NCBI GenBank assembly: GCA_963842085.1
Contig: CAWJET010000002.1
Location: forward strand, 416,001 to 480,000
DNA: 64,000 nt
Reading direction: 5' to 3'
Source: an uncultured delta proteobacterium
GTDB taxonomy: Bacteria > Desulfobacterota > Binatia > Binatales > Binataceae
Shown: positions 38,291 through 49,245 of the stretch, in pieces
How positions within the stretch are numbered: the stretch's first letter is position 1
Layout: each line of letters opens with the position of its first letter
The notes under the pieces: generated by a model
Seen by the model: only the letters and a program-made list of their open reading frames with translations
The model's database searches: none
What the model was told of the DNA's origin: nothing
Translations under genes and position numbers: made by a program

Positions 38291-39138
38291 TGGAACTGTT
38301 CAAGCAATTCGATCCCACCGATCTCATCAAGCGCGCGCTCGCTGAGGACGTGGGGCAGGGCGATATCACCACCGCCGCGACTGTTGTCCCCGGCGCGATG
38401 GGGCGCGCGAGGATCATCGTTAAGGAACCGCGGATGATTCTCGCCGGCGGCATCCTGATTGAGCCCGTGATGCGTCAGACAGGCGCCGAGCCTCGAATGC
38501 TCAAGCTCGCGCCTGAAGGGGCTGAGCTGAAGGCGGGCGATGTGCTCGCGGAGGTCGAGGGCAAGCTCGCGGGACTGCTGATCGGCGAACGCACCGCGCT
38601 CAACTTCGTGCAATTGCTCTCAGGAATCGCGACCACGACGCGCGCATTCGTCGATGCCATAGCGGGCACGCGTGCGAAGATCATCGACACGCGCAAGACG
38701 CATCCCGGCTTGCGCGTCGTCGAGAAGTACGCGGTCCGCGTCGGCGGCGGGCACAACCATCGCCTGGGCCTCGACAGCGGCGTGCTGATCAAGGAAAACC
38801 ACATCGCGGCGGCGGGCACGGTGACGAAAGCGATCGAAGGCGCGCGCCGGGTCGCACCGCATACGCTCAAAATCGAAATTGAGTGCGAGACGCTCGCGCA
38901 AGTTGAAGAAGCACTTAAAGCCGGCGCCGATGCGATCCTGCTCGACAACATGACGCTCGGCAATATCCGCAAAGCGCGCGCGTTGGCCGGATCAAAAGTT
39001 CAGCTCGAGGTTTCCGGCGGCGTGACGCTCGAGACCGTTCGCGCAATCGCCGAGGCGGGCGTCGATCTGATCTCCGTCGGCGCGCTGACGCATTCAGCGC
39101 GCTTCCTCGACATCAGCATGAGAATCGACGCGGTCTGA
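38290..39138 (+). CDS. nadC: Nicotinate-nucleotide diphosphorylase (carboxylating)
   Basis: EDVGQGDITT, DTRKT, HRLGL, LLDN, SVGALTHS. Confidence 0.96.
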   Translation: MELFKQFDPTDLIKRALAEDVGQGDITTAATVVPGAMGRARIIVKEPRMILAGGILIEPVMRQTGAEPRMLKLAPEGAELKAGDVLAEVEGKLAGLLIGERTALNFVQLLSGIATTTRAFVDAIAGTRAKIIDTRKTHPGLRVVEKYAVRVGGGHNHRLGLDSGVLIKENHIAAAGTVTKAIEGARRVAPHTLKIEIECETLAQVEEALKAGADAILLDNMTLGNIRKARALAGSKVQLEVSGGVTLETVRAIAEAGVDLISVGALTHSARFLDISMRIDAV

Positions 39139-39193
39139 TTGGCGGGCGCCGCCGCGCGCCCGACCCAACGCCTGGGCGGATTCACTGAAAAAA

Positions 39194-39991
39194 ATGCCTC
39201 AGAATCCATATCTTGCTATCGAACGAGGCGCGCCCGGCCGCATCGGCTGGCGAATCCATTATTTCGACGAGCTCGACTCCACCCAGGAAGCCGCGCGCCC
39301 GCTGGCCGCCAGCGGCGCCGACCAGGGCACCGTGGTAATCGCCGAGCGACAGACCGCCGGCCGGGGCAGGATGGGCCGCACGTGGCATTCGCCGTCCGGC
39401 GTCAACCTGTACACGACGATAATCCTCCGCCCGCCGATTCCGCTCGCCGACGTCCCGCGCATGAGCCTGGTCGCCGGCGTCGCTGCGGCCGAGGCGCTTG
39501 AGCGCGAGGCGCCGGGTATCGTCGCGCTCAAATGGCCCAACGACGTATGGCTGCGCGGACGCAAGGCCGGCGGCATAATCGCCGAGGCGGTCACCGACGC
39601 TCGACAGAATCTCGACTGCGTGCTGCTCGGCATCGGCATCAACGTAAATCTCGCCGCCGACGACATCCCGCCCGACCTGCGCGACAGGGCGACCTCGATG
39701 CGTATCGCGACCGGCCACGCGTGCGACCGGATTGCCATCGCGGATTCGCTTTTTAATCTGCTCGACTCCCGCTATATGGAAACCCTGACGCGCGGCTTCG
39801 AGTCGATTCGCCCCGCGTGGGAACGCTTCTCCGCTCTGACCGGCAAGCGCATCGCGATCGCGGACGGCGGGCGGCGTCAGTCGGGAGTGGTGAAGGGAAT
39901 CGACGGGACCGGTGCACTGCTGCTAGACATCGGAGACCGGGTCGAGCGAATCGTCGCGGGTGAGGTGAGCGTGGAGGGCGCGTACGAGTAG
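39194..39991 (+). CDS. birA: Biotin--[acetyl-CoA-carboxylase] ligase (no HTH)
   Basis: QTAGRGRMGRTWHSP, KWPND, KAGGI, GIGIN. Confidence 0.93.
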   Translation: MPQNPYLAIERGAPGRIGWRIHYFDELDSTQEAARPLAASGADQGTVVIAERQTAGRGRMGRTWHSPSGVNLYTTIILRPPIPLADVPRMSLVAGVAAAEALEREAPGIVALKWPNDVWLRGRKAGGIIAEAVTDARQNLDCVLLGIGINVNLAADDIPPDLRDRATSMRIATGHACDRIAIADSLFNLLDSRYMETLTRGFESIRPAWERFSALTGKRIAIADGGRRQSGVVKGIDGTGALLLDIGDRVERIVAGEVSVEGAYE

Positions 39992-40084
39992 GCTTATGTG
40001 ATTAGCGCGAAATAACTGCATCGCTCGGGGCGTGGCGCTCTGAAATCGGCGCTGTCCCGGCGCGCAGGTTGAGAGGTAAGCTCC

Positions 40085-42202
40085 ATGGCAGTGGAGGAAA
40101 TCGGACGGCTTAGAACTATCGCAATCGTGGGCCAGGGCGGGACCGGCAAGACCCAGGCCGCGGACGCGATGCTCTTTACGGCGGGTGCGGCGCCACGACT
40201 GGGGCGGCCCGACGACGGCTCGGCGGCGATGGACTTCGAGCCGGAAGAAACCAGGCATCACATTTCGATTAGTTCCTCGTTCAATCATCTCAACTGGAAA
40301 AAGACCGAAGTAATTTTCGCCGACACCCCCGGCTACACCGCCTTCCTGCCCGAGACGATCACCACGCTGCGTGCGGTCGACGGCGTCGTCATGCTGATAA
40401 GTCCGGGCGCAGACACCAAGATCGAATCCGAAAAAATCTGGGCCGCGACCGCCGATCTCAAACTGCCGCGAATCGCCTTCGTGTCGCGGCTCGATCGCGA
40501 GCGCACCAGCTTCGACGCCGCGATGAAGGACCTCGAAAAGGTGCTCGGCGCGCGCGCGGTCGCGCTGACGATCCCGATTGGCGAGGAGCTGGGCTTCAAG
40601 GGCGTCGTCGATGTGCTCGCGATGAAGGCGCTCACTTACGCCGACACCAGCGGCAAATCCAGGGAAGAGGAATTATCGGCTGAGCTGAAGACACGCGCGG
40701 AAGCGGCGCGCACGGCGCTGTTCGAAGCGGTCGCCGAGACCGACGACACGCTGCTCGAAAAATATCTCGACCAGGGCACTCTCGACGACGCCGAAGTTCG
40801 CACCGCCCTGCACGCGGCCGTCGTCGAGCGCAAAATCACGCCCGTCTTCTGCGGCTCGGGCGCGAAAAATATCGGCATCGGGCCGCTGCTCGACGCCGTG
40901 ACGACCTTTTTGCCGGCGCCCAACGAACGCCCGCCGGTCGAATGCCAGAATCCCGCCACCGGCGAGCCCGTAAGCCGTCCGGCAGATCCGACTGCGCCGT
41001 TCGCCGCGCTGGTCTTCAAGACGATAATCGATCCGTTCGCCGGCAAGCTCTCGATCTTCCGCATCGTTTCGGGCCGCGCGCAAAGCGATGCGGGCGTGCT
41101 CAACTCGACCAGGGAATCGAAGGAACGCTTCGGCCAGTTGCTGCGGCTCGAAGGCAAGAAGCAAGCGCCGATTGCCGGCGCAATCGCCGGCGAAATCGTC
41201 GCCGTCGCCAAGCTCAAGGACACCACCACCGGCGACACGCTATGCGACGAGAAAGCGCCGGTGCTCGTGATGCCGCCGCTCACGCGTCCGGCCGGTGTGA
41301 TGTCGTTCGCAATTCGTCCCAAGAGCAAGGGCGATGAGGAGAAGGCGTCGTCCGCGCTGCAAAAGCTGATCGAGGAGGACCTCGCGCTCGAGATGCATCG
41401 CGATCCGCAGACCCACGACATCATTTTGTCCGGCACCGGCCAGATGCATATCGAAATCACGGTCGAGAAGCTGCGCCGCAAATTCAACGTCGACGTCGAG
41501 CTTCAGGCGCCCAAGGTCCCTTACAAGGAAACCATCAAGGGACGCGCCGAAGCGCAGGGCAAGTACAAGCGCCAGTCCGGCGGTCGCGGGCAATACGGCG
41601 ATTGCTGGCTCAAGATCGAGCCGATGCCGCGCGGCAAGGGCTTCGAGTTCGTCGACAATATCGTCGGCGGCGTGATCCCGCGCAACTTCATACCGTCGGT
41701 CGAAAAAGGCGTGCGCAACACGCTGGTCGAAGGATTCCTGGCCGGCTATCCGATGGTCGACGTCAGGGTCACCGTATTCGACGGCAGCTATCACGACGTC
41801 GACTCGTCGGATATGGCGTTTCAAATCGCGGCCTCGATGGGCTTCAAGGCGGCGCTAGAAAAAGCCAGACCGATCATCCTCGAACCGATCGTCGCGCTCG
41901 AAGTTGCGTGTCCCGATGAATGCATGGGCGACGTGATCGGCGACCTCAACTCGCGCCGCGGCAAAGTGCTCGGGATGGACAGCAAGGGCAACGGCCAGGT
42001 GATCAAGGCGCAGGTGCCGATGGCAGAGGTGCTGAAGTATGCGCCCGACCTGCGCTCAATTACGTCGGGCCGCGGTTCCTTCGAGCAACACTTTTCGCAC
42101 TATGAAGAGGCGCCGGCTCCAGTCGCTGAAAAGATCATCAAGGAGACGCTCGCCGCGCGCGAGGCCGCCGGCGCCAAATCGCACGCCCACGCCCACGCCT
42201 AG
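40085..42202 (+). CDS. Elongation factor G paralog (EF-G2-like)
   Basis: Five-domain EF-G layout, QSGGRGQYG, DGSYHDVDSS; divergent G motifs GQGGTGKT, DTPGY, SRLD. Confidence 0.9.
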   Translation: MAVEEIGRLRTIAIVGQGGTGKTQAADAMLFTAGAAPRLGRPDDGSAAMDFEPEETRHHISISSSFNHLNWKKTEVIFADTPGYTAFLPETITTLRAVDGVVMLISPGADTKIESEKIWAATADLKLPRIAFVSRLDRERTSFDAAMKDLEKVLGARAVALTIPIGEELGFKGVVDVLAMKALTYADTSGKSREEELSAELKTRAEAARTALFEAVAETDDTLLEKYLDQGTLDDAEVRTALHAAVVERKITPVFCGSGAKNIGIGPLLDAVTTFLPAPNERPPVECQNPATGEPVSRPADPTAPFAALVFKTIIDPFAGKLSIFRIVSGRAQSDAGVLNSTRESKERFGQLLRLEGKKQAPIAGAIAGEIVAVAKLKDTTTGDTLCDEKAPVLVMPPLTRPAGVMSFAIRPKSKGDEEKASSALQKLIEEDLALEMHRDPQTHDIILSGTGQMHIEITVEKLRRKFNVDVELQAPKVPYKETIKGRAEAQGKYKRQSGGRGQYGDCWLKIEPMPRGKGFEFVDNIVGGVIPRNFIPSVEKGVRNTLVEGFLAGYPMVDVRVTVFDGSYHDVDSSDMAFQIAASMGFKAALEKARPIILEPIVALEVACPDECMGDVIGDLNSRRGKVLGMDSKGNGQVIKAQVPMAEVLKYAPDLRSITSGRGSFEQHFSHYEEAPAPVAEKIIKETLAAREAAGAKSHAHAHA

Positions 42203-42279
42203 AGCGCGGGGCAGGGCAGGGCGGCCTTGTATTGCAAGGGCCGCCCGTCTTGTACAATCGGTGCGGTGGCAGCTAGCCG

Positions 42280-42492
42280 ATGGCGCCGATAGGAAAGAGC
42301 CTGGTCTTCGCCGGTATCGCGATTGCGGTCGTGGGACTGGCGCTGTGGGGATTGTCGTCGGTGCCGTACGTCGGCAGGCTGCCGGGCGACATCTACGTCC
42401 GCCGCGGCAACTTCACCTTCTATTTTCCGCTCGCGACCTGCATTCTTGTAAGCATCATTGCGACTATACTGTTCTCGCTGACGAGGCATTGA
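42280..42492 (+). CDS. DUF2905-like small membrane protein
   Basis: GRLPGDI...NFTFYFPLATCIL. Confidence 0.85.
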   Translation: MAPIGKSLVFAGIAIAVVGLALWGLSSVPYVGRLPGDIYVRRGNFTFYFPLATCILVSIIATILFSLTRH

Positions 42493-42496
42493 CGAA

Positions 42497-44725
42497 TTGG
42501 CAACGGAAAAATCCGCAAGCCTGCATCGGCTCGCAGAGCGCAAGCGGCGCCGCCGCGAGCTGATCGCCGTCGGTGTGGCCGGCGCGACTCTGGTCGCATT
42601 CGTGCTCGCCCAGACCGAGTTGCCGCCGCTCACGCGTCACACCTCGCTGGCTTCGAACCTGGCGGTCATCTCGCTCTTCAACCTGAGCTTTTTGCTGCTC
42701 GGCTTGATGCTGTTCCTGGTCGGACGCAACCTGGCCAAGGTCATCTTCGAGCGCCGCCGCGGATTGATCGGCTCCAAATTCCAGGTCCGGCTGGTGGCGG
42801 GATTCATCGCGGTCGCCCTGATCCCGAGCGCGTTCCTGCTGTACGTGTCGGGCGTGTTTCTGCACGCCGACATCAATAGCTGGTTCAATCCCGAGTACCA
42901 GCAGATTCTCGATGACTCGCTCGAGATCGCGAGGACCTATTATCTGAATTCGGCCAACAACGCGTCGCATTTCGCGCGCGTGCTGGCAGAGGAGATCTCG
43001 GCGCGCGGCCTGCTCGCGCCGCAAAAGCGCGACGATCTCAAGGCGTTCATCAATCAGCGCCAGGAGGAATACAACCTCGGCACCATCGAGGTGTTCTCCG
43101 CCGATCGCAAGCTGCTGCTGATCGACCTCAGTCCCAAGACGCCCACCGGCATCGGCGCGTCGCCCGATTCGCCGATCATCTCGCAAACGCTGAAGGGACA
43201 GGCCCTCACGCGCACCGACCGCCTCGGCAACGCCGACGTAATCCGCGGCTCCGCGCCGATTTACGTCTCGAGCGAGACCGACAACGTGCTCGGCGCCGTG
43301 CTGGTCGACTACTATCTCCCGCAGAGCCTGGCGACGCGCGCGACCAACATTTCGCGCGTATCCGAGGACTACTTCCAACTCCGAATCCTGCGCCAGCCCA
43401 TCATGAACAGTTACCTGCTGACGCTGGTGCTGATCGGGCTGGTGGTGGTGACGCTGGCGAGCTGGTTCGGCATATTTCTTTCGCGCGGAATCACCGGCCC
43501 GATCAAGCTGCTCGCGCGCGGCACGCAGGCGATCGCGGGCGGCGACCTCCATTACCGCATCCCCGCCGTGGGCGACGACGAGCTCGGCCAGCTGGTCGAT
43601 TCCTTCAACCAGATGACCGCCGATCTGCGCGCTTCCGCCGCTGAGCTCGAGCGCCGGCGCCATTACACCGAGACCCTGCTGCGCAATGTGTCGGCGGGCG
43701 TCGTCGGGCTGGACCACGACGGCGTCGTCACCACCATCAATCCGTGCGCCGAGCGGCTGCTCGATCTGAGCGCCGCCGCCGTCATCGGCCGCAACTACCA
43801 GGGCGCGTTCCCGCCCGCGCTGGCCCGCGTGCTCGACGACATATTCGCTTTCGCCACGCGCCCGCGCGAAGCCCGCTCGACCGTCAAGCTCGAAGTCGCG
43901 AGCGGCGAGACCGAGCTGATGATGACCGCGAGCCCGCTGGGCGACACTCCCGGCGAACCCGCCGGAACCGTGCTGTTCTTCGAGGACGTCAGCCAGATTG
44001 CGAAGGTCGAGCGGATGGAGGCGTGGCGCGAAGTTGCGCGCCGCATCGCGCACGAGATCAAGAATCCGCTGACCCCGATTCAGCTTTCGGCCGAACGGCT
44101 CCGGCGCCAGCTCGGCGCGCGCCCGGGTATCGAGTCCACGCTGGTCGAGGAATGCACGCGCACGATTATCGGCGAAGTCGAGGACCTCAAGCGGCTGGTG
44201 AATGAGTTTTCGGCGTTCGCGCGGATGCCGCATCTGAATCCGGTTCCGGGCGACATCAACGCGCTCGCCGGCGAGACCGTCGCGAATTTCCGCGAGGCGA
44301 ATCCCAGGGTCGAGTTTGCGCTCGCGCTCGACCCCGCGATCCCGCTGATTCCGATCGATCGCGACGCGCTGAAACGCGCGCTGGTCAACCTGCTCGACAA
44401 CGCGGTCGCCGCCGTGACCGCCATCAATCATAACGGCGCCGGCCCCAGGATCGAGGTGCGTAGCTATCGGCGCCCCGACAACTCGCTCGTAACCCTCGAA
44501 GTCGCGGACAACGGCCCGGGCATCGATCCGCGCCTGCGCACCCGCATCTTCGAGCCGTACTATTCGGGCAAAAAGGGCGGTACCGGACTCGGCCTCGCGA
44601 TCGTCTCCGCGGTCGTAACCGACCATCACGGCTTCGTCCGCGTAACCGACAACCCGCCGCGCGGAAGTAGATTTGTGCTAGAATTTCCTATAAAACACCT
44701 ACAATTCGCAAAGGCAACCGGCTGA
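42497..44725 (+). CDS. NtrY-type sensor histidine kinase (TM-periplasmic-HAMP-PAS-HisKA-HATPase)
   Basis: AWREVARRIAHEIKNPLTPIQL H-box, NLLDNA, DNGPGI, GTGLGL. Confidence 0.93.
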   Translation: MATEKSASLHRLAERKRRRRELIAVGVAGATLVAFVLAQTELPPLTRHTSLASNLAVISLFNLSFLLLGLMLFLVGRNLAKVIFERRRGLIGSKFQVRLVAGFIAVALIPSAFLLYVSGVFLHADINSWFNPEYQQILDDSLEIARTYYLNSANNASHFARVLAEEISARGLLAPQKRDDLKAFINQRQEEYNLGTIEVFSADRKLLLIDLSPKTPTGIGASPDSPIISQTLKGQALTRTDRLGNADVIRGSAPIYVSSETDNVLGAVLVDYYLPQSLATRATNISRVSEDYFQLRILRQPIMNSYLLTLVLIGLVVVTLASWFGIFLSRGITGPIKLLARGTQAIAGGDLHYRIPAVGDDELGQLVDSFNQMTADLRASAAELERRRHYTETLLRNVSAGVVGLDHDGVVTTINPCAERLLDLSAAAVIGRNYQGAFPPALARVLDDIFAFATRPREARSTVKLEVASGETELMMTASPLGDTPGEPAGTVLFFEDVSQIAKVERMEAWREVARRIAHEIKNPLTPIQLSAERLRRQLGARPGIESTLVEECTRTIIGEVEDLKRLVNEFSAFARMPHLNPVPGDINALAGETVANFREANPRVEFALALDPAIPLIPIDRDALKRALVNLLDNAVAAVTAINHNGAGPRIEVRSYRRPDNSLVTLEVADNGPGIDPRLRTRIFEPYYSGKKGGTGLGLAIVSAVVTDHHGFVRVTDNPPRGSRFVLEFPIKHLQFAKATG

Positions 44726-44776
44726 TGCGATTCTTGCCGCGCCGCGACGAAGCGCGCTCCCCGGAGAAAATTTGAC

Positions 44777-46054
44777 GTGAACGAGACCGTGCTGGTGGTG
44801 GATGACGAGGAGCGGATTCGGTCGTCTTTGCGTGGAATCTTGAGCGATGAAGGCTTTCGCGTCGTCGAGACCGGCGACGCCCCGGGCGTGATGGACCTGA
44901 TTGCGCGCGAGAGTCCCGCCCTCGTTCTGCTCGACGTCTGGATGCCCGAAATGGACGGCATCGAGTTGCTGCGGCGAATCAAGTTCGAGCAGCCCCAGGT
45001 CCCGGTCATCATGATTTCCGGCCACGCCAATATCCAGAGCGCGGTCGCTGCCACCAAGCTCGGCGCCGCCGATTTCATTCAGAAGCCGTTCTCGGTCAGC
45101 GGATTGCTCGCGTCGATCGCGCGGGCGCTCGAGGGCGACTCCGCCGGTCCTGATCCATCCAGCGCGCGCGGCATGAGCGCCGAGGTCCGCGCTGCCGGCC
45201 GCAAGGCAATCCGCGCCGGCGCGATTCCGCAGCGCACCGTCGCGCGCTCGATCGTGACCGGCGGGCAGGGGCTTCACACCGGCCTCAAGACCGGCGTCAT
45301 CCTCCATCCCGCGCCCGCAGGATTTGGAATCGTGTTCACCTCGCTCGCCGACGAGACTTCCATTCCGGTCCGCTTCGAGAACGTCACCGACACCGGCTAC
45401 AACACCACCCTCGCCAGCGGCGGCCGCTCGGTCCGCACCGTCGAGCACCTGCTGTCTGCGCTCCACGCCTTCGGCATCACCAACCTCCTCGTCAAGACCG
45501 ACGACGAAGTACCCGCGCTCGACGGTTCGGCGCTTGAGTTTTGCAAACAGATTGCCGAAGCCGGGCTCACCACGCAGGACGCAACCGTCGAACCGATCAA
45601 ACTTACCCACCAGCTCGTGATCGGCGATGAAGGCGAGGGCCGCGAGTTTATCAAGGCCGAGCCCGCCGACCACCTGATCATTGATTACACGCTCGACTAC
45701 CCCAAACCGATCGGCATCCAGCAACTGCACTTCGAGCTGACTTCGCCCGACGCCTACACCCGCGAAATTGCGCCGGCGCGCACCTTTGGCTTCGTTTGGG
45801 AGTTTCGCAAGCTCGCCGAGCTCGGCCTCGGCAGCGGCGCGCGCATCGACAACGCCATCTTGGTCGACGACGACAAGGTCGTGAACACCACGCTGCGCTT
45901 CCCCGACGAATTCGCGCGCCACAAGGTCCTCGATCTGATCGGCGACCTCTACCTGCTCGGCCGTCCGCTGCATGCGCACATCACCGCGTCGAAGACCGGC
46001 CACTCCGACAACCTGGCCCTGGTCAAGGCAATCCACGCGTCGCTCCAAAGCTGA
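44777..46054 (+). CDS. lpxC: Receiver domain fused to UDP-3-O-acyl-GlcNAc deacetylase (REC-LpxC)
   Basis: REC aa 1-119 (DD9-10, D53, S81, K103-P104); LpxC from aa 152: QRT..GQGLHTG, TVEHLLSAL, DGSA, ARTFGF, HKVLDLIGDL, KTGH. Confidence 0.93.
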   Translation: MNETVLVVDDEERIRSSLRGILSDEGFRVVETGDAPGVMDLIARESPALVLLDVWMPEMDGIELLRRIKFEQPQVPVIMISGHANIQSAVAATKLGAADFIQKPFSVSGLLASIARALEGDSAGPDPSSARGMSAEVRAAGRKAIRAGAIPQRTVARSIVTGGQGLHTGLKTGVILHPAPAGFGIVFTSLADETSIPVRFENVTDTGYNTTLASGGRSVRTVEHLLSALHAFGITNLLVKTDDEVPALDGSALEFCKQIAEAGLTTQDATVEPIKLTHQLVIGDEGEGREFIKAEPADHLIIDYTLDYPKPIGIQQLHFELTSPDAYTREIAPARTFGFVWEFRKLAELGLGSGARIDNAILVDDDKVVNTTLRFPDEFARHKVLDLIGDLYLLGRPLHAHITASKTGHSDNLALVKAIHASLQS

Positions 46055-46077
46055 ACGGTTTGTCTTTCTCGCTTGTT

Positions 46078-46113
46078 CCCCTTCCCACATGCGAAGGGGT
46101 TAGGGGTTAGGTT
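46078..46113. repeat. REP-like element (CCCCTTC...GAAGGGG-TTAGGGGTTAGG)
   Basis: Short hairpin plus TTAGGGG tail; related to GGGAGAGGTTAGGTGAGGG near 61825. Confidence 0.55.
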
Positions 46114-46160
46114 AATCGAGGCGCGCGCAGTTCCCTCAGTCCTGACGGCTTAAACTCGAC

Positions 46161-46892
46161 ATGGATCTCAGAGGAAAAGTCGCGTTGGTAACCGGCGCAA
46201 GCCGCCGCGTCGGACGCGCCATCGCGCTGAAATTCGCCGGCCACGGCGCCACGGTCGCAGTTCACTATCATGGCTCGCACGCCGAGGCGGACGCAGTCGT
46301 CGCCGAGATCGCGCGCAAGCGTGGCAAGGCTCGGGCATTTTGCGCCAACCTTGAGCGCGTCGGTGAGATTGAGGCGATGGTCGCCGGCGTGCTCGACGCG
46401 TTCGGCCGAATCGACATCCTCGTCAATTCCGCTTCGGTCTTCGCGCGCACGCCGCTCGCCGAACTCACCGAGCGCGACTGGGACGCGAACCTCGATACCA
46501 ACCTGAAGGCGCCGTTTTTTCTGTCGAAGTTCGCGGGCGCAGCGATGCGCCGGCAGGGCGCGGGCAAAATCGTCAACCTCGGCGATTGGGCCGGGCTGCG
46601 TCCGTACAAGGACTACCTGCCGTACTCAGTGTCCAAGAGCGGCCTGATAGGCTTGACCAAGGCGCTCGCCAAAGAACTGGCGCCCGAAGTGCAGGTCAAC
46701 TGCATAGCGCTGGGCATGGTGATGCCGCCCGAAAGCTATACCAGGGAAGAAGTGGAGCGCCTCGTCAATCGCACGCTAACCAAAAAAATGGGCTCCGCCG
46801 AAGACGTCGCCCGCGCCGTGATCTTCTTCTGCGAAACAGACTTCGCCACCGGCGCAACCCTCGAACTGGAAGGCGGTCGCCTGCTCGTTTAG
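46161..46892 (+). CDS. SDR oxidoreductase (pteridine reductase/FolM-like)
   Basis: TGASRRVG, LVNSASVF, YSVSK. Confidence 0.88.
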   Translation: MDLRGKVALVTGASRRVGRAIALKFAGHGATVAVHYHGSHAEADAVVAEIARKRGKARAFCANLERVGEIEAMVAGVLDAFGRIDILVNSASVFARTPLAELTERDWDANLDTNLKAPFFLSKFAGAAMRRQGAGKIVNLGDWAGLRPYKDYLPYSVSKSGLIGLTKALAKELAPEVQVNCIALGMVMPPESYTREEVERLVNRTLTKKMGSAEDVARAVIFFCETDFATGATLELEGGRLLV

Positions 46893-47932
46893 CTCTTCTC
46901 CGTCGGCGCCTTCTTGAACTCGATCTTCGCGCTCTTCGCAATTTTCTTGAGCAGCGCCTTTACGACCGTGTCTTCGTTCTCGTCGAGCAAAAACATCGCA
47001 ATCTTCGCCTTCACTTCCGACAGGGGCGAGATCGTCTCGCCGCGCCGCGAAAGCACCTTGATAAAGCTGAAGCCGAGATTCGACTCGACGATTTGCGTCA
47101 GCTGCCCGACCGGCGTCGCGAACACCAGCTTGTCCACCACCGGCGGCAACTGCCCGGGCCGAAAGTAACCGAGGTTGCCCCCCTTCGCCGCCGATTCCGC
47201 GTCCTCGGAGTTCTGCTTGGCGAGCGCCGCGAAGTCCTTGCTCTTGAGCGCCTCCTTGTACAGCTTGATGATTTTTTCGCTCGCCGCCTTCTTCTGCGCG
47301 TCGGTCGGGTTGGGCGGGAGCTTCACCGCGATGTGCGCGATTTCCGCCTCGCCGGGATCCTTGACGAACAGGTCGCGATGCTCGTCGTAGTATTGCTGGA
47401 TCTGCGCGTCGGTGGGCTGCACGTGATGCGCCCGGAATTCGTCGTCGAGCATTTTCTCGATCACCATCGACCCGCGCACCGCGTTCATCAGTTGCGCATC
47501 CGGAGCGCCGGTCGTCGCGACGGTCTGGCCGCCCGCGCCGGCAATCTGGAACTCGCGCGCACGCTGCGCCACTTCGGGGTCGGAGACCGTGATCTTGCGC
47601 TTCTCGGCCTCCTGCAGCAGCAATTGCCGGTTGATTAGATTTTCGCTCGCGTCGCGAAACACCGCCCTCGATTCTTCGGTGCTGGTCGCGTTGATCATCC
47701 GCGCTTCGGTCTTCGCATAGTCGGTTATCTCCGCCGCGGTGATCGGAGCGCCGTTGACCGTCACCACCACCGGATCTTTCGGATTGGGTTTGACCAGCGG
47801 GAGGATTCCGAGGAAGCGTTGTTGCCAGTCGAGTCCCGCCTCACCAAGTTGCGCGCAGACTGGATACGCGGTTGCAACCGCGACAGCAATCGCGACAATC
47901 AAACCGGCGAGCGGCGTTCGGCTAATGCGCAT
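46889..47932 (-). CDS. SurA/PrsA-like parvulin peptidyl-prolyl isomerase
   Basis: Signal peptide, VNGAPIT, HIAV, FAALAKQNSED...GGNLGYF; start at 47932 inferred. Confidence 0.88.
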   Translation of the reverse strand: MRISRTPLAGLIVAIAVAVATAYPVCAQLGEAGLDWQQRFLGILPLVKPNPKDPVVVTVNGAPITAAEITDYAKTEARMINATSTEESRAVFRDASENLINRQLLLQEAEKRKITVSDPEVAQRAREFQIAGAGGQTVATTGAPDAQLMNAVRGSMVIEKMLDDEFRAHHVQPTDAQIQQYYDEHRDLFVKDPGEAEIAHIAVKLPPNPTDAQKKAASEKIIKLYKEALKSKDFAALAKQNSEDAESAAKGGNLGYFRPGQLPPVVDKLVFATPVGQLTQIVESNLGFSFIKVLSRRGETISPLSEVKAKIAMFLLDENEDTVVKALLKKIAKSAKIEFKKAPTEKS

Positions 47933-48052
47933 CAATTCAAAACCCCCAATCGGTCTGCGTGCGGCGCCCCGCACGATGAACCCACGGCGTATACTCGGAT
48001 GCGATTCGGCGTCAAGGGGGTCGCCTCGATGCGGGCGGCTGGGAGATTTGCG

Positions 48053-48238
48053 ATGGCGCAACTGCGCACCGTGAGCATGGTCTTCGCGATAGTCGCGAGC
48101 GTAGTCGCGATTGTCGCCGGCTTCATCCTGTTTTTTGTGATCGAGCAGCCGTTCCTGGCGTCGATTTTTCTCGCCTCCGCGCTAATCGCTATCGGATGCT
48201 TCGTGCTCACGGGCATCGCCGCCTACTTCGGTCCCTGA
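48053..48238 (+). CDS. Small two-TM membrane protein (61 aa)
   Basis: GGGAG SD, two hydrophobic helices. Confidence 0.6.
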   Translation: MAQLRTVSMVFAIVASVVAIVAGFILFFVIEQPFLASIFLASALIAIGCFVLTGIAAYFGP

Positions 48239-48354: not shown

Positions 48355-49131
48355 TTAAGTGTATTCCCCCCTGCTGCCACGCGGCACGAGTGCCGGCGCG
48401 TACGCCGTTCTGCACGGCGGCCCCGGCGCGAAGTAGTGCACGACTTCCGGCGTGTTGCTGCGCATGAAGATCAAGCTCGACGACCGCGTCCCATAGTTCT
48501 CCAGATGCAGGCACAGCGCATTCGGCCGTCCCGTGCGCGAATCGAGCTGCGTATTATGGTCGGCCAGCAACGCCCCCAGCTCTGCGCGCTGCCCCACGGG
48601 GTCGCGCTGGAAATCCGCACGATTCCCAAGCTCCGCGAACTTGCCATACGACGCGCTTATCTTGGGACACTCGAAATCGTTCACGTCGAGATTGGACAGC
48701 AGATGCAGCCCGGGCTTCAGCGCGACCACCTCGATCAAAGCGCCGCGATTATACGCGACGAACGCCTCGGTCCGCGAGACCATCAGCAGATTGAATGGAT
48801 TGTAGTCCGACCCACGCTCGCGCGCCGCGAACTCCGCCGCCTCCGCCGCCGTCCGGCGCCGAAGCGCATCGAGGCATAGCAACCCGCGCGACCGCGCATT
48901 CGGATTGGCGCCGTTCTCCGCGCGCCGATTTAGCAGCCCCGCCACAATTCCATGCTCGCTGATGCCAAGCCACGTCCCGCCCGCCTTCAGGTCCTTGCCG
49001 CCAACCACGTGCGGCTCCTCGAGCAGGGTAGTAGGGTCAACCGCCGGCCGCTCGAGAAACTCATCACGATTGGCCGCAATCACCACCGGACAGTCGCGCG
49101 TCGCCTGAAAGTAAATCGCCAGCGTGCACAT
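48355..49131 (-). CDS. NRDE/TANGO2 family protein
   Basis: MCT start, AANRDEF, GGTWLG, SRGLL, YGTRSS. Confidence 0.92.
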   Translation of the reverse strand: MCTLAIYFQATRDCPVVIAANRDEFLERPAVDPTTLLEEPHVVGGKDLKAGGTWLGISEHGIVAGLLNRRAENGANPNARSRGLLCLDALRRRTAAEAAEFAARERGSDYNPFNLLMVSRTEAFVAYNRGALIEVVALKPGLHLLSNLDVNDFECPKISASYGKFAELGNRADFQRDPVGQRAELGALLADHNTQLDSRTGRPNALCLHLENYGTRSSSLIFMRSNTPEVVHYFAPGPPCRTAYAPALVPRGSRGEYT

Positions 49132-49184
49132 CCATACAAAGTTGGCAGCCCGCCGCCCCCCCGCACAAGCCCCACATTTCTTAT

Positions 49185-49245
49185 TACTGGGTGCAGGGGT
49201 CACCCCTGCCCAAGGAAGCGTGAAACCCACGGCGGGTTTCACTAC
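49185..49245. repeat. Composite double-hairpin REP-like repeat, copy 2 (GTAG-initiated on minus strand)
   Basis: Matches 48291-48348; minus strand reads GTAGTGAAACCCGCCGTGGGTTTCAC. Confidence 0.9.

Follow-up and report, generated by a model that had tools for sequence, protein, structure and literature searches.

LpxC commits the cell to lipid A synthesis, and how its activity and the flux into lipopolysaccharide (LPS) are set outside enterobacteria is largely an open question. Response regulators with enzymatic outputs are known, among them CheB, PleD and WspR (receiver-GGDEF) and RpfG (receiver-HD-GYP). A two-component system dedicated to lpxC has been described in Desulfovibrio vulgaris: in the passages of Rajeev et al. 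(2011, PMC3333781) that deal with it, the kinase is DVU2931, the regulator is the sigma54 regulator DVU2934, and lpxC (DVU2917) is the single target of that regulator. In Syntrophobacter fumaroxidans, according to the same passages, the orthologous operon is immediately preceded by lpxC. In Rhodobacter sphaeroides and Caulobacter crescentus, the levels of both lpxC transcript and LPS respond to NtrYX, according to the parts of PMC7240162 and PMC12444477 concerned with NtrYX; the latter, a 2025 Journal of Biological Chemistry review of lipid A regulation, describes these effects in that part as transcriptional only and not specific to LpxC. Here, we describe a gene in which a receiver (REC) domain and LpxC are joined in one protein, directly downstream of an NtrY-type histidine kinase gene. 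It lies in a stretch of 64,000 nucleotides (nt), hereafter the window, from an uncultured soil member of the Binataceae (assembly GCA_963842085.1, contig CAWJET010000002.1, positions 416,001 to 480,000).

The initial annotation of the window had described a DUF2905-like gene, an NtrY-type kinase gene and then a single open reading frame (ORF) of 425 amino acids (aa), free of stops and frameshifts, with the receiver residues DD9-10, D53, S81 and K103 and a full LpxC domain from nt 45230. The ORF map, Pfam and the motifs bear this out, and the ORF at 44777-46054 is uninterrupted; the linker between the two domains comes to about 35 aa rather than the earlier figure of about 32 aa. The features of the locus, in window coordinates, are as follows.

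42280-42492, plus strand: DUF2905 gene, first of the cluster, for a putative small membrane protein of 70 aa (PF11146, 1.1e-23)
42497-44725, plus strand: NtrY-type sensor histidine kinase gene, 742 aa (NtrY_N, HAMP, PAS, HisKA and HATPase_c by Pfam)
44726-44776, plus strand: spacer of 51 nt between the kinase and fusion genes, with GGAG at 44763-44766
44777-46054, plus strand: REC-LpxC fusion gene, 425 aa (Response_reg and LpxC), the only lpxC of the genome
44789-45118, plus strand: receiver domain, residues 5-114 (PF00072), with the D53 codon at 44933-44935
45119-45229, plus strand: linker, residues 115-151, variable and disordered, from the predicted local distance difference test (pLDDT) and the homologue alignment
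45230-46036, plus strand: LpxC deacetylase domain, residues 152-420 (PF03331), with E223/H224, H382/K383/D386, D390 and H409

We read the kinase and the fusion protein as a two-component pair in which phosphorylation switches LpxC activity, and we assign this reading a probability of roughly 0.6. Its observed part comprises the architecture, its conservation, the single copy, the kinase linkage, the intermediate forms and the orthology of the receiver. As to the mechanism, the kinase probably senses an envelope-related signal and would phosphorylate D53 of the receiver; phosphorylation would then alter the output of LpxC, the enzyme itself being the response-regulator output. By analogy, activation is the favoured sign of control, since the ancestor would have been an activator, and the physical route might be dimerisation of the receiver or an occlusion of the kind modelled for CheB, which serves here as an analogy only. 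As in CheB, PleD, WspR and RpfG, a receiver at the N-terminus of the window protein is connected by a flexible linker to a catalytic domain at the C-terminus, with an enzyme and not DNA binding as the output; unlike theirs, this output is a zinc amidase with a biosynthetic role in an essential pathway. If a dedicated sensor kinase acts in this way on the cell's single LpxC, the pair would represent a directly testable post-translational switch.

Both domains of the protein are complete. The receiver matches Response_reg (PF00072) over residues 5-114 with 108.3 bits against a cut-off of 30.2 (3e-31) and contains the acidic pocket (D9/D10), the phospho-acceptor (D53), the switch Ser (S81) and the Lys (K103). 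The LpxC domain matches PF03331 over residues 152-420 (1.3e-83; profile positions 1-267 of 268), passes the TIGR00325 lpxC equivalog (242.1 bits, cut-off 187.25) and carries the TVEHLL, HKVLD and KTGH motifs. Solved LpxC structures align to residues 147-420 with the same motifs (E223/H224, H382/K383/D386, H409), which we take to correspond to the zinc and catalytic residues E78/H79, H238/D242 and H265 of Escherichia coli LpxC. Across 69 LpxC domains, E223/H224, H382/K383/D386, D390 and H409 are at least 97% conserved. The bifunctional LpxC/FabZ model (NF009667) is matched by the LpxC part alone, with 203.4 bits against 465, and the fusion differs from such LpxC-FabZ proteins in having no FabZ part. 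For the receiver, NtrX (NF051870) is the top response-regulator model of NCBIfam, although the receiver part alone matches it (125.6 bits against 600), and the best related solved structures are 4d6x and 5m7n, presumably both Brucella NtrX. The AAA+ and helix-turn-helix (HTH) parts of NtrX are absent from the window protein, as are the GAFTGA-bearing AAA+ module and the Walker B motif that define sigma54 enhancer-binding proteins. Judged by these matches, the protein is a descendant of an NtrX-like protein and not a member of NtrX itself.

An important question is whether the fusion is real or whether an assembly artefact or a private frameshift joined two neighbouring genes. The initial annotation had proposed checking sequence support across 45130-45230, the presence of a second lpxC and the occurrence of the fusion beside NtrY-type kinases in relatives, whose lack of it would have spoken against the fusion. 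Seven soil-metagenome runs from two studies contain at least 70% of the sampled words, and contigs from three of the four runs compared (two studies) bridge the linker region 45082-45289 with zero differences and no indels or joints; one bridging soil run may be the source sample itself. Far from being absent from relatives, the fusion is widespread, its architecture recurring in hundreds of homologues. All 120 best homologues listed (73-93% identical) carry both Pfam domains, and the named ones belong to Candidatus Binatus or Binataceae; databases annotate the fused proteins just as LpxC or, at times, as NtrX. Among 201 sampled genomes of the phylum, 48 gave a top match with an E-value of at most 1e-70, and domain mapping verified the fused form in 46 of these (G158 and G074 were left out), with fusions distributed over about 20 families. 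In a representative library of 1.84 billion proteins, the top 150 matches included about 20 full-length REC-LpxC clusters (412-461 aa) and about 20 two-stretch proteins of 650-736 aa. In a collection of species-representative genomes, REC and LpxC were both matched at 32 of the 80 returned loci, the titles of which include Binataceae, Deltaproteobacteria, Syntrophobacter, Syntrophobacteraceae, Thermodesulfovibrionia, Holophagae, Holophagales, Thermoanaerobaculia, Aminicenantes, Terriglobia, Desulfocapsaceae and Desulfopila sp. IMCC35006. The record of the last organism, titled as an isolate, contains a REC-LpxC gene with both Pfam domains (L123:2977-4326); experiments on the proposed switch might therefore be possible in culture and not with recombinant protein only. 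These data already refute an artefactual origin, the probability of which is practically nil.

The fusion is also the only LpxC of its host. The genome (4.93 Mb, two contigs, completeness 100) gives exactly one LpxC match, the fusion itself, together with LpxA (two matches), LpxB and LpxK, and in five of five further fused genomes (three with a triple REC-AAA+-LpxC fusion, two with the double form) the fused protein is likewise the sole LpxC. The lpxA, lpxB and lpxK genes lie no more than 14 kb apart on the other contig (G000:C1:2919776-2933750), far from lpxC; therefore, lpxC has left the lipid A cluster for the kinase locus.

Fused and plain forms do coexist in places. One genome (G199; 5.9 Mb, contamination 5) has a fused and a plain LpxC together (C52:6919-7719 and C232:4649-5467), which could be a true paralogue pair or bin contamination, and families f55, f39 and f36 include genomes with the fusion and genomes with plain LpxC (e.g., G068, G136 and G197 versus G103), a pattern suggestive of lpxC having been replaced or transferred horizontally. 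Open frames of 1000-1400 aa in three relatives are not kinase-REC-LpxC fusions; there, a frame stays open across the kinase gene, which is read in another frame.

How could such a protein have arisen? We examined 69 loci, selected and not sampled at random (fused loci, plain loci with the highest scores and plain loci near a kinase match), comprising 33 REC-LpxC loci (the window included), 13 REC-AAA+-LpxC loci and 23 plain LpxC loci, and found three gene states. In the first, the genes are separate: among loci chosen for a kinase match beside a separate lpxC (n = 6), the order is lpxC, NtrY-like kinase, REC-AAA+ regulator in all six, and the fusion of the window thus occupies the position of the response regulator, as the initial annotation had supposed. 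In each of the four free regulators scanned, Sigma54_activat is complete (2e-71 to 3e-73) and is accompanied by the AAA lid and HTH_8. A sigma54-like -24/-12 element (at least 8/10) is present 67-78 nt upstream of lpxC in three of the six unfused loci, against a background of 1-4 matches per 12.7-19 kb of locus sequence on both strands. Gene order and sigma54-like elements in the unfused loci fit the lpxC account of Rajeev et al. (2011, PMC3333781). As in D. vulgaris, a kinase and a receiver of the NtrC/NtrX family are dedicated to lpxC, and the unfused relatives in the phylum place lpxC, kinase and REC-AAA+-HTH regulator side by side; the likeness is drawn from the published description of the D. 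vulgaris system. The difference is that control in D. vulgaris is transcriptional, via sigma54, whereas the window protein has lost the AAA+ and DNA-binding parts and carries its receiver in covalent linkage to the enzyme.

The second state is represented by proteins of 720-795 aa with Response_reg, a weak and partial Sigma54_activat match (1e-20 to 1e-28), AAA_lid_14 and LpxC. Among the 120 listed homologues of one such triple fusion, LpxC, Sigma54_activat and the lid occur in all and Response_reg in 117. When eight triple fusions were aligned with four free regulators, the two groups were colinear throughout. Walker A is retained in 8/8 triple fusions, whereas GAFTGA, present in 4/4 free regulators, is found in none of the eight, and the Walker B Asp-Glu of the four free regulators has lost its Glu in all eight. 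A remnant of the Fis-type HTH aligns in six of the eight (it is absent from two f60 proteins), and the LpxC N-terminus (QRTL/QKTL) starts about 10 residues past it; the remnant is called from the alignment with the free regulators and not from Pfam, which gives sub-threshold values for the 70-aa segment between AAA lid and LpxC in three triple fusions (HTH_8 0.046, HTH_28 0.035, HTH_5 0.15). Among the NCBIfam response-regulator models, NtrX gives the free regulators (491-520 bits) and the triple fusions (258-351 bits) their highest scores, as it does the window receiver. The likeness to NtrY/NtrX of Alpha- and Betaproteobacteria thus covers the receiver and a kinase of NtrY_N-HAMP-PAS-HisKA-HATPase type, while the differences are that every score (125.6, 258-351, 491-520) falls below the equivalog cut-off of 600, that the window protein is devoid of AAA+ and HTH, and that the free relatives of its regulator have GAFTGA, a motif which, to our knowledge, true NtrX lacks. 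From the alignment, we regard the second state as a whole NtrX-like regulator joined end-to-end to a whole LpxC, the sigma54-activator functions having decayed afterwards.

The third state is REC-LpxC, the type found in the window. Its receiver can be traced to the regulator of the unfused clusters: in 5/5 unfused genomes, the top genome-wide match of the window receiver is the regulator beside the lpxC-linked kinase, with 118-127 bits and 49-54% identity, compared with 89 bits at most for the runner-up. In a quick maximum-likelihood tree of the 69 LpxC domains (46 fused, 23 plain), evaluated with the SH-like approximate likelihood ratio test (SH-aLRT), a branch with a value of 100 separates the fused from the plain domains. 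Within the fused clade, REC-LpxC and triple architectures are interleaved; the free tree implies four changes for REC-LpxC, of which the strongly supported branches force one. A hidden Markov model built from the middle regions of the 13 triple fusions found no AAA+ or HTH remnant in the linkers of the 33 REC-LpxC loci, its matches (full E at least 0.005) falling on the flanking receiver helix and LpxC start, as built in by construction; in two f18 proteins, the segment after the receiver resembles the helical linker of the free regulators, by eye only. We therefore read REC-LpxC as the triple fusion minus AAA+-HTH, lost once or several times. The direction is taken not from the tree but from the colinearity and from domain loss being more parsimonious than ordered insertion. 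In this scheme, an NtrX-like sigma54 activator that controlled transcription of lpxC would have been joined end-to-end to LpxC, and its dead AAA+ and HTH parts would later have been deleted to leave receiver, linker and LpxC. The initial annotation had proposed the collapse of an ancestral ntrY-ntrX-lpxC cluster. Descent from such genes is supported by the intermediate forms and by the receiver match in 5/5 genomes, but the assumed order is not, because in the six unfused clusters examined lpxC precedes the kinase and does not follow the regulator, and the fusion consequently needed a rearrangement.

The kinase is the next element of the proposed pair. Its H-box reads ARRIAHEIKNPLTP, its NtrY_N match reaches 27.9 bits against the Pfam cut-off of 23.2, and HAMP, PAS, HisKA and HATPase_c are all above their cut-offs. 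Over almost its full length, it is 35-45% identical to kinases of relatives that adjoin fused as well as unfused regulators. The GTG start of the fusion gene is preceded at 10 nt by GGAG; no terminator-like site was found in the 51-nt spacer behind the kinase gene and no sigma70-like promoter within positions 42000-46400 of the window, and a scan of the plus strand at 39000-46200 gave no sigma54-like -24/-12 element (at least 8/10), a weak negative. Among the relatives, the synteny with an NtrY-type kinase holds directly upstream of 7/33 REC-LpxC loci (the class of the window plus G162; several other loci end at contig edges) and of 5/13 triple-fusion loci. Moreover, five of five genomes with an orphan REC-LpxC have a single NtrY-like kinase elsewhere with no receiver beside it, which suggests that orphan kinase and orphan fusion are partners. 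Like the kinase of the window, one of these five distant kinases has DUF2905 in front of it, and a DUF2905 match ahead of the NtrY-like kinase occurs in L041, L017 and L090 too.

Several observations weigh against a phosphorylation-controlled LpxC, and they bear at the same time on other explanations. No kinase adjoins 26 of the 33 REC-LpxC loci, and the host genome encodes at least ten other REC-AAA+-HTH regulators, so that other partners of the kinase are possible. Such numbers, like the many orphan fusions, would also suit a receiver that is a phosphate sink or feedback reporter attached to a constitutive LpxC, with another regulator as the kinase output or with substrate occupancy feeding back on the receiver. 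We consider this improbable: the receiverless kinases of the five orphan-fusion genomes suggest a partnership, the fused receiver is orthologous to the kinase's own regulator in five of five genomes, and a covalent join to the sole LpxC, kept across phyla, is not needed for a sink.

The AAA+ module decayed in the same lineage, which means that parts of the protein can lose their function, and the quick tree is compatible with a loss of AAA+ that happened once or several times. If the AAA+ and HTH modules of the ancestor could decay or be deleted, the receiver might equally be an evolutionary leftover without a regulatory role, and the protein merely a long LpxC. The conservation of the receiver makes this a slim prospect. 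When 26 REC-LpxC proteins with 31-92% identity to the query, from several phyla by title, are aligned, D10, D53, W55, S81, K103 and P104 of the receiver are invariant, as are E223, H224, H382, K383, D386, D390 and H409 of LpxC, whereas neither the length nor the sequence of the adjoining linker is conserved, nor is its Met133; a second alignment of 28 sequences led by the Desulfopila protein gave the same invariant set. Pfam scores of the fused receivers (99.9-111.5 bits) are on par with those of free regulators (107-116.7 bits).

Phosphorylation control of catalysis further depends on how the two domains communicate, and on this point the structure predictions are divided. AlphaFold modelled both domains of the window protein well (mean pLDDT 86.3), with linker residues 121-145 below 50, i.e., disordered, and a predicted template modelling score (pTM) of 0.83; by a rough estimate, independent domains would be expected to give about 0.63, and the model suggests a defined arrangement of receiver and LpxC. 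The Desulfopila orthologue yielded a pTM of only 0.69, and given this disagreement a conserved interface is not established. Prediction of a complex between the separate domains scored 0.01, a value obtained without controls that counts neither way. Rigid coupling is not evident from a linker that is predicted to be disordered and differs widely between homologues in both length and sequence.

The main rival starts from the same features. According to it, the receiver sets the amount or location of LpxC and not its catalysis, through a phospho-dependent degron or adaptor site or a tether to membrane or kinase, and replaces proteolysis of the FtsH/LapB type. A long, variable, disordered linker is more in keeping with a module on a tether than with relay of an allosteric signal, and the two models do not agree on an interface. 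In the parts of PMC3333781 and PMC12444477 that treat LpxC control in E. coli and Pseudomonas, LpxC is controlled mainly via its protein level. The window genome has the same enzyme and the same lipid A control point as the FtsH/LapB-controlled systems but differs in that no LapB equivalog was found in it (best match 34.6 bits, cut-off 363), an observation in keeping with the switch of activity as well. On the other hand, the neighbours of the locus are a short-chain dehydrogenase, a SurA-like peptidyl-prolyl isomerase and an EF-G paralogue, with no linked protease or adaptor gene. In addition, the 69-domain set shows twelve LpxC positions at which the residue fixed in the fused clade is rare among plain LpxCs; one is K240, which in 91% of the plain sequences is E. 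These positions may be a lead to a co-adapted surface, which would favour an effect on the enzyme itself, but lineage drift could have produced them likewise. On this evidence, control of amount or location is rather unlikely, although it deserves more weight than a sink or a leftover, and we retain the two-component switch of LpxC activity as the preferred reading.

Literature searches found no description of a receiver-LpxC or NtrX-LpxC fusion, and a search of the 2025 review (PMC12444477) for the terms "receiver", "response regulator" and "fusion" found none of them in the text it covered. Enzymatic-output response regulators and transcriptional links between NtrYX and lpxC are already known, while the receiver-LpxC fusion appears to be undescribed. 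The three states, standing side by side, document control moving from the gene to its protein product. Taken in its widest form, which we put forward tentatively and at slightly less than even odds, the fusion would be a regulatory short-circuit: the transcription factor of lpxC would have become fused to the product of its own target, and an NtrY-type envelope sensor would switch LpxC directly via D53. It would then be a widespread alternative to FtsH/LapB-type control, with titles from Binatia, Thermodesulfobacteriota, Acidobacteriota and Nitrospirota, and the first response regulator with an essential envelope-biosynthesis enzyme as its output.

Some minor observations concern the gene neighbourhoods. 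Between lpxC and the kinase, three of three unfused clusters checked contain a DUF4390 gene (2e-35 to 6e-44; L082:1335-1895, L085:7286-7861 on the minus strand, and L086:1366-1938), in place of which the window has DUF2905 ahead of the kinase; both proteins may be accessory sensor parts. In the Desulfopila record, a gene for a hemerythrin-PilZ protein (L123:1849-2661) is located just upstream of the orphan REC-LpxC gene, and the lpxC-regulating operon of D. vulgaris includes an HD-GYP regulator; a link between cyclic di-GMP and lipid A control may recur in these cases.

Within the window, the EF-G paralogue (705 aa, all five EF-G domains; 40085-42202, plus strand) lies directly upstream of the DUF2905-kinase-fusion cluster. 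An ORF of 721 aa antisense to the kinase gene (42464-44629, minus strand) and similar ones nearby are not genes, such frames being expected at 62-70% GC; the open frames of 1000-1400 aa in the three relatives have the same origin. On the other side, the fusion gene is flanked by the short-chain dehydrogenase gene (46161-46892, plus strand), which is convergent with the gene of the SurA-like periplasmic peptidyl-prolyl isomerase (SurA_N and Rotamase; 46889-48061, minus strand). SurA-type chaperones serve outer-membrane biogenesis, and the neighbourhood of the fusion therefore has an envelope theme. A gene for a bacterial TANGO2-family protein (PF05742, 2.2e-36) follows at 48355-49242 on the minus strand.

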